From positions 1-36,908 of the forward strand of contig JBBIHX010000012.1 in assembly GCA_037446815.1 (NCBI GenBank): a stretch of 36,908 nucleotides of DNA, written 5' to 3'. The position numbers and the translations under genes are program-made. Shown one piece after another: positions 1-15,380 of the stretch. Under the pieces are notes generated by a model. It made no database searches. It was not told where the DNA came from and saw only the letters and a program-made list of their open reading frames with translations. Every line of letters starts with the position of its first letter. Position 1 is the first letter of the stretch. Origin of the DNA: Caldilineae bacterium (GTDB taxonomy: Bacteria; Chloroflexota; Anaerolineae; DTLA01).

Positions 1-307
1 CCGCCACTCGGTTCCAAAGCCTCTTGCTAACCGTCATTGCGAGGGCGCGAGCGGGAATACCACACCTAGCGCGGCGGCCTTAGCCCCGCGCGACCATCCC
101 TCCCCAACTGTCATTCTGAGCCGCGAAGCGGCGAAGAATCTCGCGCCATCGGGCCGCCACTCGGTTCCATCATGTGTTGGTGGAACCGTAGGAGCACTCT
201 CCTCGTGTGTCATTGCGAGCGAAGCGAAGCAATCCCACGCCCCGGGGATTGCTTCGGGCACTGCGTGCCCTCGCAATGACAGCCACCAACAGACTCTGGA
301 ACCGAAT
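1..307. repeat. Cluster of REP-like palindromic intergenic repeats (GTCATTCTGAG...GAAGAATCTC and GTCATTGCGAG...GAAGCAATC types)
   Basis: 106-144 is identical to 23426-23464 (39 bp). 247-307 reverse-complemented nearly matches 23359-23419. 6-38 resembles 30300-30332. 209-280 is an imperfect inverted repeat. Confidence 0.85.
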
Positions 308-2694: not shown

Positions 2695-3960
2695 TTACCG
2701 CGCGGCGTGGCCCAGCGACCGCATCAGCGCCTCCAAATCGCCCACGGTCGGGTCTATGAGGTGCGGCTTGCCGGTCGCCCTGATGGCGCTGGCCACATCC
2801 TTTAGCCCGTTGCCCGTTACCAGCACCACGATCTTCTCATCGGGGTTGACGCGGCCTTCCGCCAGCATCTTCCGCAGGCCCGCGAACGCCGCGACCCCCG
2901 CAGGCTCCCCGAAGACCGCCGCGCCTCGCGCCAGGACGCGCATGGCGTCCAGAATCTCATCGTCGCTGACGGTGATATACTCGCCGCCCGTCTCGCGCAC
3001 GGCCCGCAGCGCCTTGATGCGATCGCGGGGGATGCCCACCGAGATGCTATCGGCCAGCGTGGTGGGCACAATGGGCGTAATCTCCTCGGTGCCCGCCTTC
3101 CACGCGTTGTACAGCACCGCCGAGCCTTCCGCCTGCACGCCCATCAGTTTGGGCATGTGGTCAATCCAGCCCAGCGCGACCAGGTCCTTCAGCCCCTTCC
3201 ACAGGCCGCCGATGATGCACCCATCGCCCACCGACACGAAGATGCGGTCGGGCGCTTGCCACCCCAACTGCTCGCAGATTTCCAGGCTCGCGGTCTTCTT
3301 CCCTTCCGAAAGGTAGGGGTTGTACGCCGTGTTGCGGCTGTACCACCCGTACCGAGCCGACGCCTCCAGGCAGAGGTCAAACGCCTGATCATACGTTCCG
3401 CGCACCATGATGACATTGGCGCCGAAGATGAGGAGTTGGGCGATCTTGGCCTGGGGCGCGGTCTCGGGCACGAAGATGTAGGTCGTCATGCCGACGCTCG
3501 CGGCGATGCCCGCCAGGGACGAGGCCGCGTTTCCCGTGGACGCCGCCGTCATGATGGGCCGGCCCAATTCGCGTGCGCGGGCCACGCCCACGGCGCTGGC
3601 GCGATCCTTGAACGAGGCCGTCGGGTTCCGCCCGTCGTCTTTGATCCACAGGTCGCGCAGCCCTAGTTGCTCGCGCAGCCGTTGCGCCGGATACAGCGGC
3701 GTCCACCCCACGGGCAGCGGCGGGATGGCCGCCGTGTCGGCGACGGGCAGGAGCGGAAGGTAGCGCCAGATGGAGGGCGTGAGGTCCTGGGCCAGCGCCT
3801 CGCGGGACCACCGCGCGCAGATGTAGGCGTAATCGTACACCACGTCCAGAATCCCCTCGTTGCCGTGGCGCGGGCAGACGTAGGGGTGCTCATCCATGGA
3901 ATATTCTGCGCCGCACAGGACGCACTTCATGCCAAGCACGTTCTTGTGAAGTAGGGCCAC
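2695..3960 (-). CDS. thrC: Threonine synthase (PLP-dependent, fold type II)
   Basis: NPTASFKDR PLP-lysine motif, ASTGNAASS, EGKKT, VSVGDG, TGNGLKD. GTG start with GGAGG RBS. Confidence 0.85.
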   Translation of the reverse strand: MALLHKNVLGMKCVLCGAEYSMDEHPYVCPRHGNEGILDVVYDYAYICARWSREALAQDLTPSIWRYLPLLPVADTAAIPPLPVGWTPLYPAQRLREQLGLRDLWIKDDGRNPTASFKDRASAVGVARARELGRPIMTAASTGNAASSLAGIAASVGMTTYIFVPETAPQAKIAQLLIFGANVIMVRGTYDQAFDLCLEASARYGWYSRNTAYNPYLSEGKKTASLEICEQLGWQAPDRIFVSVGDGCIIGGLWKGLKDLVALGWIDHMPKLMGVQAEGSAVLYNAWKAGTEEITPIVPTTLADSISVGIPRDRIKALRAVRETGGEYITVSDDEILDAMRVLARGAAVFGEPAGVAAFAGLRKMLAEGRVNPDEKIVVLVTGNGLKDVASAIRATGKPHLIDPTVGDLEALMRSLGHAAR

Positions 3961-4598: not shown

Positions 4599-4726
4599 CG
4601 TCCCTTGCCGATCGCCTTTGCCCATCGCGGAAGCCGCGCGGGCGAGAAACGGGTTACCATACGGAAAATCTAGACCTAGCCATCCTCAGCGATGGAGCCC
4701 CAGGCTCCGAGCGTACATCCACGGAT

Positions 4727-4755
4727 ACTATACCATGCTTTTGCAAATATGTCAA
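4727..4755 (-). promoter_or_regulatory. Strong sigma70 promoter upstream of the zinc-ribbon gene
   Basis: TTGACA-N17-TATAGT with extended -10 TG. Confidence 0.8.
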
Positions 4756-4767
4756 GCCCTTTTTGTT

Positions 4768-4830
4768 GTAGCCGTACCGGCCGAGAAGCCGCGCGAGGTC
4801 CGCGCCGCTCACATCTCTGGGCAGCCTCAT
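4768..4830 (-). pseudogene. hicA: 5' remnant of a HicA-family toxin gene
   Basis: ATGA overlap with the hicB-like stop. Reads MRLPRDVSGADLARLLGRYGY, a typical HicA N-terminus, then loses similarity before the GSH motif. Confidence 0.7.
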
Positions 4831-5036
4831 GCCACCATGACCTCTTCACGCACCACATGCATGCGGATGAGATCGGGCAAGTCGTCTTCGTCAAAGTGGC
4901 ATTTCACGGCATCCCGGATCGCCGCCTTCAATTCGTCCCAGGTATCGGCTTCTGTAAAGATTGAGTGTCCCAGCGCCCGAGCCGTGTAACCGCCTTCCGG
5001 CGCTTCTTCAATGAGGAGAATTACTTCTTTCGCCAC
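4827..5036 (-). CDS. Short HicB-like antitoxin (69 aa)
   Basis: MAKEVILLIEEAPEGGYTARALGHSIFTEADTWDELKAAIRDAVKCHF is a HicB/RNase-H-like fold pattern. GTG start with GGAGGG RBS. Coupled to the hicA-like start. Confidence 0.8.
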   Translation of the reverse strand: MAKEVILLIEEAPEGGYTARALGHSIFTEADTWDELKAAIRDAVKCHFDEDDLPDLIRMHVVREEVMVA

Positions 5037-5139
5037 GTTCCCTTGTCCCTCCACGTGCAAGGCCCGTGCACGCCAACCCATGCCGGCCTGCAAGGACTGC
5101 CTCTCGGTGTCCTGCGCCTGCTTCCTGACTCTACAAGAC

Positions 5140-5451: not shown

Positions 5452-6366
5452 TTACTCCACGCTCTCCATCTTGATGTGCCGCCGACTGATGAGGAACGCC
5501 CCGATGGTGGCCACTGCGCTCAGCCCGATGACGACGGCCTCTGCGGGCTGCAGGATGTTCTTCCACGCGCGGGCCAGGGTGGGCGTCGCAACGCTCATCG
5601 GCAGCGCGTAGCGGCCCGGCTCGTCCAACAGGATGCTCAGCCGATTCAGCCCTCCCGCCTGGGTCTCCCCGTAGAGCGCCGCCCGGTCAAATCCGCGCCC
5701 CTTCAGGAACGAGACCCGCTGCTTCGCCTTGTCCAGCAGTTCGTCGCGGCGGCCCCATACCAGAGCCCCCACCGGGCACGTGGTGGCGCAGAACGGCCCG
5801 CCGATGCCGGCGTAGATGCGATCTTGGCAGAAGGTGCACTTGGCCGCCTTGGCCTCGCCGGTGAGCGCATTCGCCACCCGAAGGTGCGGCACGCCATACG
5901 GGCAGAACTGCGTGCAGTAGCCGCACCCGATGCACTTCGCCTCATCGTAGCCGGTGAACCCCCTGGGGTCCTTGTACAGCGCCCCCGAGGGGCACACCGT
6001 TACGCACGCGGCATCGGTGCAGTGCATGCACTGGTAGTTGACGAAATGCCAGTCGGTATTGCTTCGCTTGCTCAGTTTGATGAGCGTCCAGGTATCCGCC
6101 GACAGGCTCCGGGGCGTGTCGTACAGTTTCGCCGCGCCGACCGCCTCCACGGGCAGCCGCGCCGCCGTCTGGGTATCCGCGGGCAGTTTGTTCCATCGCT
6201 TGCAGGCCATCTGGCAAGCGCGGCAGCCCACGCACTTGGACGCATCAAACAGGATGGCGAGCGGCGCATCCGCCGGCGCGGCCTGCGCCAGGCCCGTCGG
6301 CCGTATCGCCCCGGCAGCCAGCAGAAGCCCCGAGAGTTTCAGGAAGTCTCTGCGGTTGATGTCCAT
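5452..6366 (-). CDS. Tat-exported 4x[4Fe-4S] electron-transfer protein (HybA/HupX/FdnH-like) with C-terminal membrane helix
   Basis: NRRDFLK Tat motif. CVGCRACQMAC, CMHCTDAACVTVCP, CIGCGYCTQFCP, CTFC...PFCATTCP. C-terminal hydrophobic helix. Confidence 0.9.
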   Translation of the reverse strand: MDINRRDFLKLSGLLLAAGAIRPTGLAQAAPADAPLAILFDASKCVGCRACQMACKRWNKLPADTQTAARLPVEAVGAAKLYDTPRSLSADTWTLIKLSKRSNTDWHFVNYQCMHCTDAACVTVCPSGALYKDPRGFTGYDEAKCIGCGYCTQFCPYGVPHLRVANALTGEAKAAKCTFCQDRIYAGIGGPFCATTCPVGALVWGRRDELLDKAKQRVSFLKGRGFDRAALYGETQAGGLNRLSILLDEPGRYALPMSVATPTLARAWKNILQPAEAVVIGLSAVATIGAFLISRRHIKMESVE

Positions 6367-6372
6367 AGGCTC

Positions 6373-6909
6373 TTACCTACCTTCCTCACGTCCGACCGTC
6401 GCAAGGGGTTCTCGGGCCTGGGCATTGTGCCGTTCCGCGCGGGGGCGGATTCCCCACCGCGACAATTCGGCCAGCACCCGACCCACCAGCGCGCCCATCT
6501 GCGCGGCGATAGATGGCGACAACTCCAGGCCGGTGTCAATGACCTCAGGCTCCACGCCCACAAGCACCAGTTCCCGCGGGAACGTGCCGCGCAGGCGAGT
6601 CGCCGCCAGCAGGTCCGCCAGGCCCATCTGGTGGGGCGAGATTTTGATGCCCAAGCAGGCGGGCACCTCATCTCCGCTCAGGCGAACGAGGGCCCCAGGC
6701 GGGTTGCCCATCGCCACAGCGTCCACGATGAGCACGCGGTCCGCCTCTTCCATGTAGTGCAACAGGTCCAGCCCAAGGGTTCCCCCGTCCAAGACCTGCA
6801 CGTCGTCTGGGAACTCAAACCGTTCCGCCAGACGCTGCACGACCCGAACGCCCACGCCCTCATCGCGCAGCAGGATATTGCCCAGGCCGAGTACCAACGT
6901 CTTCCCCAC
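6373..6909 (-). CDS. Hydrogenase maturation endopeptidase (HyaD/HybD/HupD family)
   Basis: LVLGLGNILLRDEGVG, DGGT, IVDA, SPHQ motifs. Confidence 0.93.
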   Translation of the reverse strand: MGKTLVLGLGNILLRDEGVGVRVVQRLAERFEFPDDVQVLDGGTLGLDLLHYMEEADRVLIVDAVAMGNPPGALVRLSGDEVPACLGIKISPHQMGLADLLAATRLRGTFPRELVLVGVEPEVIDTGLELSPSIAAQMGALVGRVLAELSRWGIRPRAERHNAQAREPLATVGREEGR

Positions 6910-6912
6910 GGG

Positions 6913-8622
6913 CTACATGCTTCCGTCAATGCGGATGCGCGTGAGTTCGCGCCCGCGGGCGTCCACCACATGCACCGCGCACGCCATGCAAGGGTCAAAC
7001 GAATGAATCGTGCGCAGAATCTCAACGGGCTGCTCCGGGTCCGTTACCGGCGTGCCGATGAGCGCGGCCTCGTAGGCACCCGGCTGGCCTTTGGCATCCC
7101 TGGGCGACGCGTTCCATGTGGAAGGCACAACACACTGATAGTTGGCGATCTTGCCGTCCACAATGTGCACCCAGTGCCCCAGCGCGCCGCGCGGAGCCTC
7201 GTGGAAACCCCACCCTTTGGCCTCTTTGGGCCATGTGGCGGGATCCCACTTCTCGCCGTTGTGCACCTTGAGGTCCCCATCCGCCATGCGGGTGGCCAGT
7301 TCGTCCAGCCAGGAGATGAGTTTTCCCGCGACGACGGCGGTCTCAATACCTCGGGCCGCGGTGCGCCCCAGCGTGGAGAACAGCGCCTCCGCGCCGACGC
7401 CGAGTTTGGCGAGCACGGCGTCCACCAGCGTCTTGACCTCGGGCCGGCCCGCCACATAGGCCACCAGCACCCGCGCCAGTGGGCCCACTTCCATCGCCTT
7501 GTCGTCGTACCGCGGAGCCTTGAGCCACGAGTACTTGCCGTCCGTCTGCAAGAATTCGTAGGGCGGCCTTGGCCCCGTGTAGTTCGGCTGCGTCTCCCCG
7601 TCCCACGGGTGCTTGGACACCCCATCGCCCGCCCCGTACCGATACCATGAATGCGCCACGTACTCGGCGATCTTGGTGTGGTCCAGGGGGTGCAGGGTGC
7701 TCAAATCGCGGTTGAGGATGACCCCCGACGGGAACAGCATCGTGCCTGCCGCGTCAGGGAACTCGCCGTAGGCCAGGAAATTGCCCAAGCCCTCACCCAG
7801 CCCGGCCCACTCCTTATAGAACGAGGCCACGGCGAGCAGGTCGGGGATGTACACCTGGTCCACGAACTGCTTGGCCTTGACGAATAGCCTGCGGATCAGG
7901 GCCAGTTTGTCGGCGTTGATGGCCGTCTCGCTGTCTGGATCCAGCGTGATGGACATGCCGCCCACCAGGTAGGTCTGCGGGTGGGGGTTCTTGCTGCCCA
8001 GAATCGCGTGGACGCGGATGACATCCCGCTGCCAGTCCAGCGCCTCCAGGTAGTGGGCCACGGCCATCAGGTTGGCCTCCGGCGGGAGTTTGTACGCCGG
8101 ATGACCCCAGTAGCCGTTGGCAAACGGCCCCAACTGGCCACTCTGCACGAAGGCGGTGAGTTTGTCCTTGACGGCCTTGAAGTAGTCGGCGCTAGAGTTG
8201 GGCCAATCGGAGATGGATTGGGCCAGTTGGGAGGTCGCCACGGGGTCTGCGCGCAGGGCGCCGGTTACATCCACCCAGTCCAGGGCGTGCAAGTGGTAGA
8301 AATGAATCACATGGTCTTGAACATACTGAATCCCCGCGATGAGGTTGCGGAGGATGCGGGCGTTATCGGGAATCCGAATTCCCAGGGCGTCTTCTACGCT
8401 TCGCACGGAAGCGACGGCATGCACCGTTGTTCAGACGCCTCATATGCGCTGGGCCATGAGCCAGGCTTCGCGGGGATCGCGGCCCTTTTGGATGATTTCC
8501 AGCCCGCGGAACATGGTGCTGGAACTCCAGGCCTCGGCCACGCGCCCGTTCTCCACCTTGGCCTCAATGCGCAGATGCCCTTCAATCCGGGTAACGGGGT
8601 CAATCGCGATTCGCTCGGCCAC
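6913..8622 (-). CDS. Group 1 [NiFe]-hydrogenase large subunit, 569 aa, with two in-frame TGA codons (61 and 64) at the N-terminal CxxC ligands; predicted di-selenocysteine protein
   Basis: ORFs 8440-8622 and 6913-8424 are in the same frame: CAG CGC ATA TGA GGC GTC TGA ACA ACG GTG CAT = QRI*GV*TTVH, matching canonical QRICGVCTTVH. N-term IDPVTRIEGH and MFRGLE, KNPHP, EAPRGALGHW, C-term SFDPCMACAVH plus cleavable tail. AGGAG RBS before GTG 8622. Confidence 0.9.
8368..8427 (-). promoter_or_regulatory. Candidate bacterial SECIS-like hairpins 3' of the two TGA codons
   Basis: ACGGT-GCAT-GCCGT (8414-8427), CGCTTC-CGTGC-GAAGCG (8397-8413), GGGAAT-TCGG-ATTCCC (8368-8383). Confidence 0.55.
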
Positions 8623-8624
8623 TT

Positions 8625-9725
8625 TTACTCCTCCTCTTTCTCCTTGCTGAGACGACTGGCCGCCACCGCGCCCGCGGCGCCGACTACCAGGCCGGCAGCA
8701 GCGCCGATGGCCCCTGCAGCCGCGGGAGAAAGCCCTCCGGCAGCAGCCTCCACCTCGGGGTACGCGCTCGGTGGGGTCAACTGGTGGATGGGCACCGGCT
8801 CATAAGCAGGGCTTTCCCAGAAGTTCGGGGCGGCGCAAGCGATGCATCCGTGCCCCGCGCCGACGGGCCAACTGGTGCCTTCGTTCCAGCGGAGCGTAGG
8901 GCAGTTGTGGAATGCCACCGGCCCCTTGCACCCCATCTTGTACAAGCACCATCCCTTGCGATGGCCTTCATCTCCCCATGCCTGCACGAACTCTCCGGCG
9001 TCAAAGTGCCCGCGCCGCTCGCAGTTGTCGTGAATCCGCCGCCCGTAGGCAAACAGGGGCCGGCCCAGGTCATCCACCGCCGGCAGGCTCCCAAAGGTCA
9101 GGAAATGCACCACCGTTGCGGTCAGGTTGTCCACGTTGAACGGGCAGCCCGGCAGGTTCACGATGGGGACGCCCGAGATCACGTCTTTCACGCCCTTCGC
9201 GCCGGTGGGGTTAGGTGTTGTCGCGGGCCAGCCCCCGTAGAAGGCGCAGGCGCCCACCGTGATAACGGCGGCCGAATGCCCCGCCACTTCCTTGAGAATA
9301 TCCAGAGCCGTGCGCCCGCCGATGCAACAATAGATGCCGTCATCTGCCGTCGGTATGGAGCCTTCAACGACCGTGAGGTACCCGCCCTCGGCGACCGTGT
9401 CCGCCAAGGATTTCTCGGCGCGCTTGCCGGAAGGGGCCATAATCGTCTCGTGGTAGTTGAGGGACAGGGTATCCAGCACCAGTTCTGCGACGGTGGGCCT
9501 GTTGGCGCGGAGCAGCGATTCGGTGCATCCGGCGCAGTCCTGCATCTCCAGCCAGACCACCGCCGGGCGCTTGGCGGACTCCAGCGCCCGCGCGATCCTG
9601 GGCGTGAAACTCGCGGGCAGGGCCAGCGTCCCCGCCATAATCGCGCAGAACTTCAGGAACTCCCGGCGGGATACCCCGTGCTGAGTGAGAGCGGTTTTCA
9701 AGGGGCCTTTCTGGTGTCTCTCCAT
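8625..9725 (-). CDS. [NiFe]-hydrogenase small subunit with Tat signal and C-terminal membrane anchor
   Basis: SRREFLKFC Tat motif. DCAGCTES, VGACA, LPGCP (proximal cluster), IHDNC...CLYKMGC (distal), C...SWP...HGCIAC (medial). Hydrophobic C-terminus. GGAGG RBS. Confidence 0.95.
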   Translation of the reverse strand: MERHQKGPLKTALTQHGVSRREFLKFCAIMAGTLALPASFTPRIARALESAKRPAVVWLEMQDCAGCTESLLRANRPTVAELVLDTLSLNYHETIMAPSGKRAEKSLADTVAEGGYLTVVEGSIPTADDGIYCCIGGRTALDILKEVAGHSAAVITVGACAFYGGWPATTPNPTGAKGVKDVISGVPIVNLPGCPFNVDNLTATVVHFLTFGSLPAVDDLGRPLFAYGRRIHDNCERRGHFDAGEFVQAWGDEGHRKGWCLYKMGCKGPVAFHNCPTLRWNEGTSWPVGAGHGCIACAAPNFWESPAYEPVPIHQLTPPSAYPEVEAAAGGLSPAAAGAIGAAAGLVVGAAGAVAASRLSKEKEEE

Positions 9726-10118: not shown

Positions 10119-13100
10119 TCAAGGTATCTCCCAGGTGCATCCCTCGGCGGCCAGAATCCAGTATCCCTTGCCGGGCTCCAGCAGCCGCAGGTCGTTGACG
10201 AAGTCGGGCGCGCCCGGCCTGTACCGCCGCCATGTGCCGCCCCACGCGCTCGCGTCGTAGGTCATCACCGCTACGATCTTGTCGGCGATGGGGGCCAGGG
10301 CGGTCTCTGGACTGCGCGGCTCCGTGGCGGGGAACCCCACCATGTTCCACCCCGCATACAGCGGAATCTGTGTCCCGCTGGGCGGCTGGCCCTGTACCCT
10401 CAGCGTTGTCGGCGCGATGACCTTCACCCACATCCCCATGCGCTCATCCACAAACGTCAGCGAGTTGGCTCCCGGCGGCATCAGCGGGCTGTACGATTTC
10501 CAGGTTCCCGCGCTCGCGTCCCAGTAGTACACGCTCACCAAGACATCCGATATGGGCCCGAACAGCACATCTGGGTTATTGGAACTGGGCACCACGGGCA
10601 GCGAGATGAGGTTCCACCCCTCGTGAAGGGGCACGCCGGGCGTCGTGGCCGTCCCCGTAGCGGTGGGGGTGGGCGTGGGCGTATCCGTCGGCGCGGGCGT
10701 AGGCGTCCACGTTGCCACGGGCGTGTCCGTCGGCGTGGGCGTCGCGGTCGGCGTCCGCGTCGCCGTGGCCGTGTCCGTCGGCGCGGGCGTGGCGGTCGGC
10801 GTCCACGTCGCCGTGGGCGTGTTCGTCGGCGCGGGCGTCGCGGTCGGCGTCGCGCTGGGGATAGGCGTCGGCGTGGGCGTCGGCGTCCACGTTGCCGTGG
10901 GCGTGTCCGTCGGCGTGGGCGTCTCGCTGGCCACCGAATACGCCACCTGCAACAGCGGCCGCTTGGACACGTCCGGATACTCCGCCGAGGCGAATCGGTA
11001 CTCCACGGAGCCGCCCGTGGACGCGCCCCTCACCACCAGGCCGAAGTTCTCGCTCGGGTGCGTTACCCAATGCCGCACCGAATCGGAGACGTCCACCGTT
11101 ACGGCGCTGTTGGCCGCGTCCATGTGGAACGTCGTGCCGGTGGCCGTGCGGTCGTAGGTGGTTCCGTTGCAGCCATCAACTTCCCACCGCTCGCCGGCCC
11201 GCGGCTGCTGCCATGTGGCCTCCGTAGCGACCCAGGGCCGTAGCACGCGGTACACCAGCCCGTCAAACATGTTGCCGTTGCTCTGGTACGTGGCGTACAG
11301 CGTGAGCGACGCGCTGATGACGTTGGCGCCCGACGGGATGGACGACACATCAAACCGCACCAGCCCCGCCATCACGTCGTAGGTGCGGACGCTGAAGTGC
11401 GTGAGGCCCGCGAAGTTGCTCGTGGGCTGCCACTGATCCATGTACGTGTCCACGCTCCCCGTGTAGCCATTGGCGCCGAAGCGGAACGTGGCCGTCTGCA
11501 CGGGGCCGCCCGGCGTGGGCGTCGGCGGGACAGGCGTGGCACTCGCGGTATGGGTTGCCGTCGCCGACGGCGTGGGCGAAGGCGTCGCCGTGGGCTGCGG
11601 GGTGCCGGTGGGAGTGGGCGTCGCCGAGCCGGTGCGGGTCGCGGTTGGCGTCGGCGAGGCGGTGGGTGTCCGCGTGGGCGTCGCCGTCGGCCCGCCGGGC
11701 CAGTATTCTATGATGAGTTTCGGGCGGATAGAGGCGTTGGTATTCTCCGACGAGGCAAACGTGTAGCCCACCGAGTTGCCCCCCGCGTCCCGCAGCAATA
11801 GCCCCAAGTTGGTCGCGGGCACGGCTACCCAGTTCCGCACAATGTCGGTAACATCCAGGCTGACCCACACGTTCGTGATGCTGGGCGGCGGCTGCTGCAT
11901 GTCCGTGGCCGTGGCCGAGCGGTCCTGATTGGGCGGCTCCGTGCTGTTGCAACCGGCCAGGCCCCAGAAGGTACTGCTGGTGGCGCGGTTCCACGTGGCG
12001 CCCGACTCCGTCCAAGAGCGCATGACCTGATATGGGCTGAAGTAGGCCGAGCCGGCATTGCTTCGCGCCGTGAGGTAGATTTCCAGCCGCGCCGAGCCTA
12101 CCGACGCGCCCGCGGGCAGCGGCGACAGGTCAAACCGTAGCAGCGCCGAATGGATGTCCTGCCGCCCGTAGTCGTAGTTGCCGCCGCGAATGCTGAAGGT
12201 CGGCTCGTTCCCGTAGTTGGTATCCTTGGCCCACCAATCTATCAGCGTGTCGGTCGCGCCCGTATATCCATTCAGCCCCTGCTGGAGCGTGAGGACGGTA
12301 GGCGGCGTGGACGGCGTCGGCGTCGCCGTCGCCGTGGGGGCAGACGTCGGCGTGCGCGTCGGCGGCTGGCCCTCCAGGGTGTACTGGACAACGAGTTTCG
12401 GCCGCACGGCTCCGTCCTCGTAGTCGGCCCCCGCCAGGCTGTATTGCACCAGTTCGGCCATGGTGCACGTGGACTTCAGCACCAGGCCCTGGTTGTTCGC
12501 GGGGTCCAGCACCCATGCTTGCACCATGTCCGTTATGTCAAAGGTGTACCAGCGGTTGGTGTACTGGAGCCAAATCTCTTCGCCGCCGATGTTGGAGCGG
12601 TCGGTGCCGATGCCGTTGCAGCCGGGCGTGGCCCAGGGCGCGCTGCTGGTGGCGCGGTTCCAGGTGGCCTGCGAGTCCACCCACGGCCGCAGGACGGCAT
12701 AGGGCCGGGCGCACATGTAGGCGCTGTTGCTCTGGCCTACCGTGTACACCTGGAGTTGCGCGTTCAGAATGGTGGCATTGCTCGGGATGCTGCTCACGTC
12801 AAAGCGCAGGAGCGATGCGATGATGTCCCCCGAGCGCACGATGAGGATCGTGTCCCAGTTGTAGTTGGAATCGTCGCTGTAGTCCGAGATGTACGTATCG
12901 CGCACGCCGCCGTAGCCATTCAGCCCCTGCTGGAAGGTAACGGTGGTGGTGGCGGGCGTGGGGCCGGGCGTGAACGTGGGCGTCTGCGTGGGTGTGGCGC
13001 TGGGCGTGCGGGTTGGCGGGGCCGGGGGGCCCGGGGTGAAGGTCGGCGGCCGCGGCGGTGTGTTGCTCGGGGTGGCAGGGACAGGCGTCGGCGTCGGGGT

Positions 13101-14765
13101 GGACGTCGGGCCGGCGCTCCCGCTCTTGGTAACGTCCACGAAGTGGATGTACTCGTCGCCGTCGCTGCGTCCGTCAAGGTAGAAGTCGCTCCCCCCGGCC
13201 AGGCTGTTGGCAAACCGCGCGTTGGGCAGGACGAAGGTCGCTTTCTTCCACGTGAGGCTGTTGGTCTTGTATACGCTGCCGCCGAGCCGCTCGCCCGACG
13301 TGGAGTCGTAGAACAGGTCCCAGCGGTCGGTCCCGCGGTCAAAGTACGTAACGGTAACCGTTACGGTCTGGTTGCCGTTGTACAGGTACCCATCGTCCAC
13401 CTTGAAGAACATGTAGGGATTGCCGGAGGAAGCATCGGTGCGGCGGGTGATCCACGACTCCTTGCCCACCCACGAGCCGCCCAGGTTCACCCCCTGCTCC
13501 GTCTTGTTGGTGATGGCGCAACCGGAAGTGGTGGTGGGGAAGTTCAGCCCTGTGCGGTAGGTTACGACCACCGTCTTGCCGCCGGGCACCGAATCGTCCT
13601 GGTACAGCCAGAAACTGAAGTTGCCGCACTCCGGATACCACGAATAGCCCGACTCGCGCATGGCCACCCACACGCTGGGCGTGTCCTGCAACGTCCGCCC
13701 CAGGTATCGGTTGGCGAACTCCAGGATGGGGAAGTTGTAGTAGCGGATGTTGCCCTGGGCGTCCTGCAACAGCCACCCGCGCCAGTCCTGGGGCGAGTAG
13801 TCAAGGGTAAGCCAGGTGTTGTGGCGATGGAGGACGCCGAGCACGCCCCAGTAGGTCTCCTCTTCGGTCGGCGTCATGTACTGGTACGCCTCTTGTCCGG
13901 TGGGATACGTCAGGCTCCACTTGTGGATGGGGTCCACCGTCCCGCAACCCTCAAAGCCGGGCTTGTCGGGGATGTACTGCGAATCCGCGTCGGCCTGCAT
14001 CGCGGCGTGGAAGTCGCCGATGCCGTAGGTGAGCGCCGCGTAATCGGTCCACTCCTTGCGCTCGCAGATGTGCTGGAAGCGCGGCGTGCCCGGAATCACC
14101 ACGCGGGTCGTGTGGAAGGATTGGCCGTACATGTCCACAATCTGCTTGACGGTGCTGACCCACAGCGGCCCCGAAAGCCCGTTGTCGCGCATGCACTGAT
14201 CGTAGGCCTCCACGCAAGGCTGTGTCTCGCCGTACACGCCCACGCCCATAATGACGAACTCCAGGCGCGGGTCGCCGTCAAAGCGCTGGCCGAGGGCGCG
14301 CACGAAGTTGCCGTACTTCTGCAAATAGGCCCAGTGCCAGTACTTGGGAATCTGCTCCGAGCCGCAGGTCAGGACCGCATCGGGGTAGCGGCTCTGGAAC
14401 CACGAGGGGACCATCAGGCCGCCCGCCTGGCCTGCGTAGGTCTGCAAGTGCAGGGCAGCCGGCTTGCCTTTGGCCCACTGGGAGGCCAGGAAGTTCTCAA
14501 TCAGGTCCCAGCGATATTGCCCCTCGCTCGGCTCCAGTTGCTTCCAACTGAAGGTCATATGCCCGCCGACGATGGGCCATTGAGCGGGGTCCAGGTTCGC
14601 GCTGTCGCGGGCCACGTACACGCCCGGCCGGGGCGTGGCGGGGGCGGCATTGCTGCGAATGCCCTGCGCCGAACTGTAGTTCCGCCCACCCGCGCTCAGC
14701 CCGACGACGGTGAAGCACACCACCACCGCCGCAATCCAGAGAAAGCGAGATCGGCTTGTCCTCAT
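10119..14765 (-). CDS. Large secreted multidomain protein (1548 aa): GH-A/beta-galactosidase-like N-terminal domain, three DNRLRE-like domains, Pro/Thr linkers, C-terminal GWN-repeat domain
   Basis: Signal peptide [16 protein letters not shown] with [24 protein letters not shown]. Three repeats of QGLNGY.G..DT.I.../LLRFDVS/ATW/RPKL. PT-rich spacers. EGWNLISLP and AGWNMVGFP. Confidence 0.8.
10640..10925 (-). repeat. Degenerate coding tandem repeat encoding a Pro/Thr linker (about 16-aa unit [16 protein letters not shown])
   Basis: Repeated GGCGTCGGCGT/GGCGTCCACGT blocks; translation is TP-rich. Confidence 0.8.
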
Positions 14766-14979
14766 GTCGCAATCGCTCCTGATGTCGGATGTAAAACCCC
14801 TAGTGTAGAGTGTATCCGTGTATCTTCCACGCCGCAATGGGGAAATGGTACCATGGGCGCTTCGGAGCGGGCCGTTCCGACGGTGGCGCGGCCTGCCCCG
14901 TGGGGGGCATTCACCCTCCTGTAACGCCGCGAGCCCGCGCCGAGATACGCCCTGGCGCACGCAACGGCAGTTGCAGGCC

Positions 14980-15380
14980 GTCATTGCGAGGGCGTGAGGC
15001 ACCCGAAACAATCCCACGCCCCCCATCCGCCCCATCTGTGCTATCCGTGGATAGCGGTTCTCCATTCGCGTGGATTCGTGCTATTCGCGGTTACACGAAC
15101 CGTCATTCTTCGCCGCTTCGCGGCTCAGAATCTTGCCCCCCATCCGCTCCATCCGTGCTATCCGTGGATGCAACCCTGGAGATGCTTCGCCTTCGGCTCA
15201 GCATGACAGACGGGGTCAACGTGCGACGCACCTCGGAGGTGCGTCGCACGTGAACTCCCTCACTCCACCCCTCTCCGGACGGGCGACCAGGCGCCCACCG
15301 TTATCCCGAGCGGCGAAGAATCTTATCCACCATCCGCGCCATCCGCGCTGTCCGTGGATACCCGTCCTCTATTCGCGGTT
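14980..15380. repeat. Dense cluster of mixed REP-like repeats
   Basis: GTCATTGCGAGGG...AATCCC, CTTCGCCGCTTCGCGGCTCAGAAT, TCGCCTTCGGCTCAGCATGACA, three (A/G)TCCGTGGAT-ending units, and a 33-bp palindrome at 15219-15251. Confidence 0.8.

Follow-up and report, generated by a model that had tools for sequence, protein, structure and literature searches.

The window examined here, a stretch of 36,908 nucleotides (nt) from a Caldilineae bacterium of the class Anaerolineae (contig JBBIHX010000012.1), carries on its minus strand an operon for a [NiFe] hydrogenase. The gene of the large subunit contains two in-frame UGA codons (UGA1 and UGA2), with four potential RNA helices close behind them, and we ask whether these codons are read as selenocysteine (Sec) and which of the helices could act as the selenocysteine insertion sequence (SECIS) element. 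The comparisons below point to one of them, hairpin 2, as the SECIS element and associate another, hairpin 1, with UGA1. With TGA translated as Sec (U) the hydrogenase frame is open from end to end; gene calling with translation table 11 returns two open reading frames (ORFs), of 60 and 503 amino acids (aa). Both cysteines (Cys) of the N-terminal nickel motif RxCGxC are TGA (codons 61 and 64), giving R-I-U-G-V-U-T-T-V-H, and the C-terminal motif DPCMACAVH keeps its Cys, as do all main-clade genes of the class (the set of 79 described below) that reach the C-terminus.

The best NCBIfam matches of the large subunit are NF007550 (Hya-type; 659.8 bits, E 3.4e-198) and NF007778 (Hyb-type; 630.5 bits, E 2.1e-189), both below their equivalog cut-offs; NF033181 also matches, below its own cut-off (E 1e-169). 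On the minus strand the gene of the small subunit lies upstream of that of the large one, and the genes of the maturation endopeptidase and then of the ferredoxin-type protein follow downstream (Table 1). The small subunit bears a twin-arginine translocation (TAT) signal; that of the ferredoxin-type subunit is weak (TAT_signal, E 7.4e-4, below cut-off). A Hya/Hyb-related large subunit, a TAT-signal small subunit and a dedicated endopeptidase are traits of Group 1, and the gene layout is that of a predicted periplasmic uptake (Group 1-type) [NiFe] hydrogenase, an assignment that stops at the level of the group. Between window positions 3960 and 5450 there was no sign of a membrane cytochrome or of a HybB-like gene.

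Positions in the mRNA are counted from the U of UGA1 (nt 1 = window position 8442, minus strand). An earlier reading of the letters alone, hereafter the sequence-only reading, had drawn four structures at 8368-8439 on this strand, and all of them proved to lie where it placed them, with the sequences that it gave. Its distances are also correct: the loop of hairpin 1 begins 17 nt from UGA1, and that of hairpin 2 begins 23 nt from UGA2 (32 nt when counted from UGA1). The loop of hairpin 1 begins 8 nt from UGA2. The apical loop of hairpin 2, CGUGC (nt 36-40, 8407-8403), contains G37-U38. Hairpins 1 and 2 are both part of the minimum-energy structure given by RNAfold, as is the outer, enclosing helix. 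The same reading had noted codons atypical of a gene rich in G and C at third codon positions (GC3), and this holds: GC3 is 0.823 over the whole gene and 0.538 in codons 60-85, which ranks this stretch in the bottom 3 of 544 windows, each 26 codons long. The rare codons in the stretch are ATA (1/31 Ile), GCT (3/68), CGA (3/33), GTA (3/47), GGA (3/47) and ACA (3/27). A scan of 8250-8550 against Rfam gave three chance-level matches (E 1.9-9.7) and no SECIS family.

Table 1 Coordinates of the hydrogenase operon, of the RNA structures behind its two UGA codons and of the other SECIS elements of the genome (bp, base pairs)
Feature	Window position	mRNA position (nt)	Strand	Remarks
[NiFe] hydrogenase large subunit gene	8622-6913		-	569 aa, two UGA read through; R-I-U-G-V-U = residues 59-64
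UGA1, codon 61, first Cys of RxCGxC	8440-8442		-	TGA in 36/79 class homologues and in at least 118 further stretches elsewhere
UGA2, codon 64, second Cys of RxCGxC	8431-8433		-	TGA in 52/79 class homologues (36 UxxU + 16 CxxU)
AUA (Ile) codon directly 5' of UGA1	8443-8445		-	context feature linked to UGA1
Hairpin 1, ACGGU-GCAU-GCCGU	8414-8427	16-29	-	5 bp, -4.6 kcal/mol alone; putative accessory helix linked to UGA1
Hairpin 2, CGCUUC-CGUGC-GAAGCG	8397-8413	30-46	-	6 bp, -6.6 kcal/mol alone; predicted SECIS element
Enclosing helix, GGCGUCU with AGACGCC	8439-8433 with 8392-8386	4-10 with 51-57	-	pairing probability about 1 in free mRNA
Hairpin 3, GGGAAU-UCGG-AUUCCC	8368-8383	60-75	-	coding by-product of G-I-x-I-P
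Hydrogenase small subunit, twin-arginine signal	8625-9725		-	TIGR00391 440 bits (cut-off 179.5); TIGR01409 TAT signal above cut-off
HyaD/HybD-type maturation endopeptidase	6373-6909		-	TIGR00140 169.3 bits (cut-off 151.8)
4Fe-4S ferredoxin-type subunit, HybA-like by domain content	5452-6366		-	Pfam Fer4_11 E 1.1e-17
FdhA SECIS (C57)		16-32		6 bp, loop GGUCU, -8.0 kcal/mol alone
SECIS of second molybdopterin gene (C15)		15-33		7 bp, loop GGUCU, -11.3 kcal/mol alone
SelD SECIS (C13)		15-29		6 bp, loop UGA, -9.5 kcal/mol alone

Homologues were collected from 401 genomes of Anaerolineae, the class of the window, among which 104 have the protein. To 25 initial loci we added 26 two-TGA, 16 one-TGA and 18 TGA-free places from the class search; the two-TGA and one-TGA places were all taken, and the TGA-free (Cys) ones are 18 of those listed. 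Five loci of another subgroup (L036, L037, L038, L041 and L084) and a C-terminal fragment (L030) were left out. The remaining 79 distinct class genes comprise 36 with UGA in both positions of the motif (UxxU), 16 with UGA in the second only (CxxU), 27 with neither (CxxC) and none with UGA in the first only (UxxC). L084 (G106:C125:4116-5633), a homologue with 50% identity, carries a single in-frame TGA, and this lies away from its N-terminal nickel motif, which reads CxxC. Relatedness was controlled on a FastTree protein tree with the motif columns removed, which is not the product of a careful search; on it the states UxxU, CxxU and CxxC need at least 19 changes, and 8-9 are forced by well-supported branches.

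Beyond the class, a scan for the pattern Q-R-I-UGA-G-V-UG[A/C/U], with one genome per species, yielded at least 119 stretches, 118 of them UxxU and one UxxC. The listed stretches come from Anaerolineae, other Chloroflexota and many Nitrospirota (Thermodesulfovibrionia), with a few from Deltaproteobacteria, Methylomirabilota, Rokubacteria and Acidobacteriota. Combined with the class genes they make a set of at least 123 distinct UxxU and 16 CxxU stretches of 63 nt, that is, 139 UGA-bearing sequences. A scan of metagenome contigs for CxxU gave at least 120 stretches, 107 of them distinct, which bring the CxxU sequences to 123 when the 16 of the class are included. All counts on these larger sets refer to the matches listed. 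UxxC is nearly absent, with 0 cases in the 79 class genes and one frame-shifted case among the at least 119 stretches. In that copy (L216:310-372) the frame is lost after H-A-A and regained in another frame, and hairpin 2 is lacking; a frame-shift or an assembly error lies behind it.

Hairpin 2 goes with the UGA codons. In the class, all six of its pairs are formed in every UxxU gene (36/36), in every CxxU gene (16/16) and in none of the CxxC genes (0/27). Four versions of the stem occur, CUGCUC/GAGCAG (24 genes), CGCCUC/GAGGCG (12), CAGCUC/GAGCUG (9) and CGCUUC/GAAGCG (7), which compensate one another; with some of them, amino acids 71 and 75 of the protein change as well. As for the loop, 50 class genes have CGUGC and 2 have CGUGA. 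On the tree, the presence of any UGA and that of a perfect hairpin 2 go together in 8/8 independent contrasts (0 opposite, 0 ties, p = 0.008). Among the 139 listed UGA-bearing sequences, G37 and U38 are invariant (139/139), and the arms vary in concert: pair 31-45 is UA in 48, AU in 26 and GC in 24; pair 32-44 is GC in 77 and CG in 24; pair 33-43 is CG in 125 and UA in 10. The covariation score of the hairpin is 0.166, as against 0.117 in shuffles, none of which reaches it (0/500), and 0.04-0.12 when the partners are slid. RNAalifold, run on 30 sequences picked for diversity from the 123 listed UxxU, returns hairpin 2, in which four pairs are compensated and no pair is broken; in the same alignment hairpin 1 is reduced to a 3-bp core.

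About 40 unpaired cells of hairpin 2 in the 139-sequence set stem from a Nitrospirota version, whose register appears to be shifted, with a bulged C. In this register (L112, L124, L133 and 26 others) the lower stem has 5 bp, the C bulges out above it, and two further pairs at the top close the loop GGUGA. As a candidate structure in its own right (28-32/43-47 with 34-35/41-42) it fits 29/54 Nitrospirota UxxU sequences but also 4/19 CxxC ones; it is less specific and was set aside.

Hairpin 2 can be compared with the consensus bSECIS model of bacterial SECIS elements by Zhang and Gladyshev, which allows 3-9 nt in the loop, 4-16 bp in the stem and a spacing of 16-37 nt, asks for a G at loop position 1 or 2, usually followed by G or U, and sets -7.5 kcal/mol as the upper limit of the minimum free energy (PMC13188914). 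It agrees with the model in loop length, stem length and loop G, and in spacing for both UGAs; hairpin 1 agrees in the size of loop and stem (4 nt, 5 bp). The energies are -6.6 kcal/mol for hairpin 2 and -4.6 kcal/mol for hairpin 1, each folded by itself, and -11.4 kcal/mol for the two jointly; the value in the model applies to a whole candidate structure, and the outcome depends on the limits chosen for the element. In build, hairpin 2 equals the FdhA SECIS of the same genome, with 6 bp and a pentaloop that has GU at positions 2-3 (xGUxx). A helix that is kept in UGA-bearing homologues, compensated when its arms change and lost in Cys homologues behaves as a functional SECIS element does. The claim of the sequence-only reading that hairpin 2 is such an element is thus upheld by its restriction to UGA genes (52/52 versus 0/27), its covariation and the tree contrasts. 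Judged from these comparisons, hairpin 2 is a real bacterial SECIS element; it would bind SelB, and Sec, rather than Cys, would be inserted.

The genome of the window has the machinery that such an element calls for. A tRNA-Sec is present (69.9 bits in Rfam, cut-off 47; called SeC with anticodon tca by ARAGORN), and profile searches find SelB at 358 bits, SelA at 587 and SelD at 373, so that the set of tRNA-Sec, SelA, SelB and SelD is complete. SelA co-occurrence says little as evidence: it is found in 47/49 class genomes with a UGA-bearing homologue, and its base rate in the class is 348/401; this tally takes in two genomes flagged as unpublished (G345 and G388), on which nothing else here depends. 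Three further genes of the genome contain one in-frame TGA each: the SelD gene itself, at a SCAG-U-AGK site (C13:14206-15138), an FdhA-type formate dehydrogenase, at HCARL-U-HSS (C57:4905-6938), and a second molybdopterin oxidoreductase, at HQARI-U-HSA (C15:10153-10902). Their SECIS stems begin 11-12 nt and their loops 17-18 nt past the UGA.

The enclosing helix and hairpin 3 tell a different story. All six pairs of hairpin 3 are formed in 7/36 UxxU, 2/16 CxxU and 4/27 CxxC genes of the class, and for both structures the distributions of pair counts are alike in the three kinds of gene. Neither is associated with UGA on the tree, where the contrasts go both ways. As Sec-linked structures they are rejected, since they are as frequent in Cys-only homologues, an outcome that the sequence-only reading had itself named as refuting. 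Both are by-products of coding that follow from the protein sequence.

Hairpin 1 stands between these cases. Its five pairs are all formed in 29/36 UxxU, 2/16 CxxU and 0/27 CxxC genes of the class. Within it, G18 is found in 120/123 UxxU and 48/123 CxxU sequences (41/107 of the metagenome CxxU), while the third positions of the codons around it are free to vary in either set. For the Thr at nt 16-18, ACG is used in 118/123 listed UxxU sequences, in 5/16 class CxxU and in 5/19 CxxC. The core G18-G19-U20 pairs with nt 25-27; where Ala is encoded by GCA, its partner is instead the ACC of nt 28-30 (33/33), and one or the other core pairing is possible in 121/123 UxxU versus 49/107 metagenome CxxU sequences. 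Isolated compensations are a U-A in place of G18-C27 in L143 and an ACCGU/GCGGU stem in L069, a CxxU sequence. The codon before UGA1 is ATA in 111/123 UxxU, 14/123 CxxU and 2/19 CxxC sequences, and in the window it is the sole ATA among the 31 Ile codons of the gene. The large UxxU and CxxU comparison (123 versus 123) carries no control for relatedness and gives strong association, not proof. By sequence comparison, then, the hairpin 1 core, G18 and AUA show strong associations with UGA1.

The loop of hairpin 1 is not constrained in the way of a SECIS loop. In class UxxU genes it reads GCAU, UCAC, UCAU, ACAC, ACAU or GCAC and never contains GU; a G stands at position 1 or 2 in 16/36, and in the window GCAU has G first, then C. 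Its place relative to UGA1 is that of an ordinary SECIS element of this genome, with the stem from nt 16 and the loop from nt 21. The proposal of the sequence-only reading that it is a second SECIS element, one per UGA, does not stand up to its variable loop, the lack of GU in that loop and its absence as a full stem from Nitrospirota (0/54).

Some relatives arrange this region otherwise. L147 and L161, a near-identical pair from Thermodesulfovibrionales, also carry two hairpins in tandem; their positions match, and the sequences of their arms are unrelated. The subgroups L147/L161 and L037/L168 (the latter from Anaerolineae) are both UxxU with Pro after the second Sec codon, and the second loop of L147/L161 is AGUUA. 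Where Val is encoded by GUU, RNAalifold shows a small hairpin at nt 10-23 in which UGA2 itself takes part (UGAAC with GUUCA); the window cannot form this hairpin with its GUG codon, and it was discarded as a candidate there.

The reading that we favour, with modest confidence and from homologue comparison, is that both UGAs are read as Sec, that hairpin 2 serves both and that hairpin 1 is an accessory helix tied to UGA1. Reuse of hairpin 2 was among the options of the sequence-only reading and fits the data best of those; its broader claim of a constraint at the RNA level, linked to UGA decoding, is supported by the homologues. Hairpin 2 would be the SelB-binding SECIS element for UGA2 across a spacer of 17 nt, the arrangement of every CxxU gene, and it would be reused for UGA1 with its loop 32 nt downstream. 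We infer this reuse, and likewise a spacer role for hairpin 1, which may be a collapsible spacer, a suggestion that we offer tentatively. With UGA1 placed at the A site, the mRNA channel would be filled by the 12 nt that precede hairpin 1; the ordinary SECIS elements of the genome start at that distance too. Hairpin 1, when folded, would put the foot of hairpin 2 near the mRNA entrance, roughly one helix width beyond. Three codons on, the ribosome would have melted hairpin 1, and hairpin 2 would then stand 17 nt from UGA2, a distance close to that in the folded state. The figures for ribosome footprint and helix width behind this idea are general knowledge. Another helper role, inseparable from that of a spacer, would be for hairpin 1 to tie up nt 28-29 and thereby block a competing 4-bp hairpin (nt 29-32 with 39-42). 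As a candidate element, this 4-bp hairpin is not preserved in the other stem types and was rejected.

Several observations weigh against this reading. Hairpin 2 alone (-6.6 kcal/mol) is weaker than the bSECIS limit and than the other SECIS elements of the genome (-8.0 to -11.3 kcal/mol), and compared with their three loops its loop lies 5-6 nt farther from UGA2 and 14-15 nt farther from UGA1. When the first 12-24 nt are removed in imitation of the ribosome, the probability of hairpin 2 is 0.1-0.3 and RNAfold prefers the 4-bp alternative. The whole fold has an energy of -32.8 kcal/mol (RNAfold, z = -0.50), and 55/200 shuffles fold at least as well; the fold of the window sequence on its own is no more than chance. 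Hairpin 1 has a mismatch in 7/36 class UxxU genes, its 5-bp stem is found in 0/54 listed Nitrospirota UxxU genes, where a 3-bp core is left, and the distant UxxU subgroup L037/L168 has a single hairpin (loop AGUU, 12 nt past UGA2). Given these three facts, hairpin 1 is not generally required for UGA1. The tests controlled by the tree also fall short of significance. For hairpin 1, UxxU versus CxxU gives 7 contrasts (3.4 same, 0 opposite, 3.6 ties, p about 0.25) and UxxU versus the rest 9 (4.8 same, 0 opposite, 4.2 ties, p about 0.06); for G18, UxxU versus the rest again gives 9 (5.1 same, 0 opposite, 3.9 ties, p about 0.06).

The gaps in hairpin 1 and the shortfall of its tests, along with those of G18, speak for an account in which only hairpin 2 matters, while hairpin 1, G18 and AUA are baggage of a UxxU cassette spread by descent, transfer and recombination; the very similar DNA of UxxU genes from different phyla in this region points the same way. 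We hold this to be unlikely, although it deserves to be taken seriously. The synonymous columns 6, 9, 15, 21 and 24 vary freely beside a G18 that is kept, which indicates time enough to drift; where a GCA codon denies G18 its partner at nt 27, the next codon is always the ACC that offers the other partner; L143 and L069 carry compensated replacements; and the contrasts never run in the opposite direction. That each hairpin serves its own UGA, binding a SelB-Sec-tRNA complex of its own so that no single site has to be reloaded within three codons, is improbable in our view. The geometry of hairpin 1, which begins 12 nt and opens its loop 17 nt past UGA1 exactly as in the FdhA, C15 and SelD elements, would suit such a division, as would its enrichment in UxxU genes and the tandem hairpins of other sequence in L147 and L161 (two near-identical genes only). 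The helix itself does not suit it: hairpin 1 is short and weak, shrinks to 3 bp in Nitrospirota UxxU genes and lets its loop vary without ever showing GU, whereas hairpin 2 keeps G37-U38 in all listed sequences. One or both UGAs might also be read as Cys, through the same hairpin, by a SelB-dependent tRNA of the tRNA-ReC kind. Of the genomes with UxxU hydrogenases of Group 4, about 56% are reported to have such tRNAs, and there sequence alone cannot tell Sec from Cys (PMC13582414). Of the 45 tRNAs that ARAGORN finds here, one is a tRNA-SeC(tca) and one a tRNA-Cys(gca) of ordinary build (74 nt); a second Sec-like tRNA is not among them. The genome is 93.6% complete, so that a missing tRNA gene is possible; the remaining sub-threshold Rfam matches to tRNA-Sec are Ser, Leu, His and Cys tRNAs. 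We regard a Cys reading as very improbable. Least credible of all is a broken gene in which the TGAs terminate translation and the hairpins arise by chance. Standard gene calling does split the gene in two, and the fold energy is ordinary. Against this, 36 class genes and at least 118 stretches from several phyla have TGA at these two Cys codons as well, in a frame that is otherwise intact, hairpin 2 covaries with the TGAs, and the operon partners are intact.

Going back to the reading in which hairpin 2 serves both codons, a fuller version can be drawn that we find possible yet rather doubtful: a two-register 'accordion' SECIS, in which one SelB hairpin would be presented to UGA1 and then to UGA2, AUA would add an effect of context or pausing, and the product would be an uptake hydrogenase with two selenium ligands (one terminal and one bridging) that is widespread in uncultured Anaerolineae and Nitrospirota.

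The closest known kind of element is the bacterial SECIS of the Escherichia coli fdhF type. Like bacterial SECIS elements as described by the bSECIS model, hairpin 2 is part of the coding sequence, follows UGA closely on the 3' side and has a 6-bp stem and a 5-nt loop with G-U; unlike them, it follows, as one hairpin, two UGAs that are 9 nt apart, and a UGA1-linked hairpin abuts its 5' side. Variants of hydrogenases with CxxU, UxxC and UxxU have been described for Group 4 by Takano et al. 2026 (Front Microbiol; PMC13582414). According to the same text, Groups 1 and 3 are known only with C-terminal UxxC, apart from two Group 1 and one Group 3 CxxU sequences, for which Baltazar 2011 is cited (PMC13582414). 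The authors suggest that both UGAs may be decoded from a single SECIS element downstream and warn that tRNA-ReC could insert Cys (PMC13582414). As in the N-terminal UxxU [NiFeSe] variants of Group 4, both Cys of the CxxC are UGA here and a SECIS-like stem-loop, with a conserved G in the loop, follows the Sec codons of the N-terminal nickel motif (PMC13582414). The group differs: those enzymes belong to an energy-converting complex and include four reported UxxC, whereas the present one is Group 1-like with a TAT small subunit, and UxxC is essentially absent (PMC13582414). In the available passages of that paper no accessory upstream hairpin is described (PMC13582414).

The enzyme also departs from the canonical [NiFeSe] hydrogenases (Desulfovibrio/Desulfomicrobium, Methanococcus Vhu/Fru). 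Theirs is likewise a large subunit with Sec as a metal ligand, but it has one Sec, in a C-terminal DPUxxC, whereas here that motif is DPCMAC and the Sec codons are N-terminal, which sets the present enzyme outside that type. In the available portion of a review, [NiFeSe] enzymes are listed only from sulfate reducers and methanogens (PMC13188914). The same portion records UxxU in a Prx-like oxidoreductase, a putative mercuric-reductase-like metal-binding protein and the FmdB family, which likewise have two Sec codons two codons apart and differ in family (PMC13188914). As far as the text of the sources found in our literature search extends, it contains no report of UxxU in a Group 1 enzyme or of a helper hairpin, and UxxU in hydrogenases appears only for Group 4.

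What is new here is that one SECIS element, one UGA1-linked helper and two by-products are told apart, together with the UGA1-specific G18 and AUA and the near absence of UxxC. How one SECIS could feed two nearby UGAs is a mechanistic question, raised without an answer for Group 4 in the available text (PMC13582414). A natural series of CxxC, CxxU and UxxU genes with many switches, and with AUA, G18 and the hairpin 1 core linked to UGA1, makes it testable. A nickel site with two seleniums has, going by the available text, been approached only by engineered single Cys-to-Sec substitutions, for which Evans 2021 and 2024 are cited (PMC13582414); if our reading is true, this would be a natural uptake hydrogenase with its nickel held by two selenium ligands. 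Because gene callers cut the hydrogenase gene in two, the H2-oxidising capacity of Anaerolineae and Nitrospirota genomes is likely under-counted.

A few observations concern the surroundings. A 101-nt 'tRNA-Trp(cca)' called by ARAGORN (C109:1830-1930, minus strand) matches no Rfam tRNA at E up to 1 and is probably a false call; it corresponds to L001:566-666 on the minus strand, about 800 nt from the tRNA-Sec gene (selC). In the window, two short adjoining frames downstream of the hydrogenase operon, at about 4650-5110 on the minus strand, resemble by eye a HicB/HicA-type antitoxin-toxin pair. The operon is adjoined by an ORF of 1648 aa with long Pro/Thr-rich linkers and repeated modules (10119-15065, minus strand).

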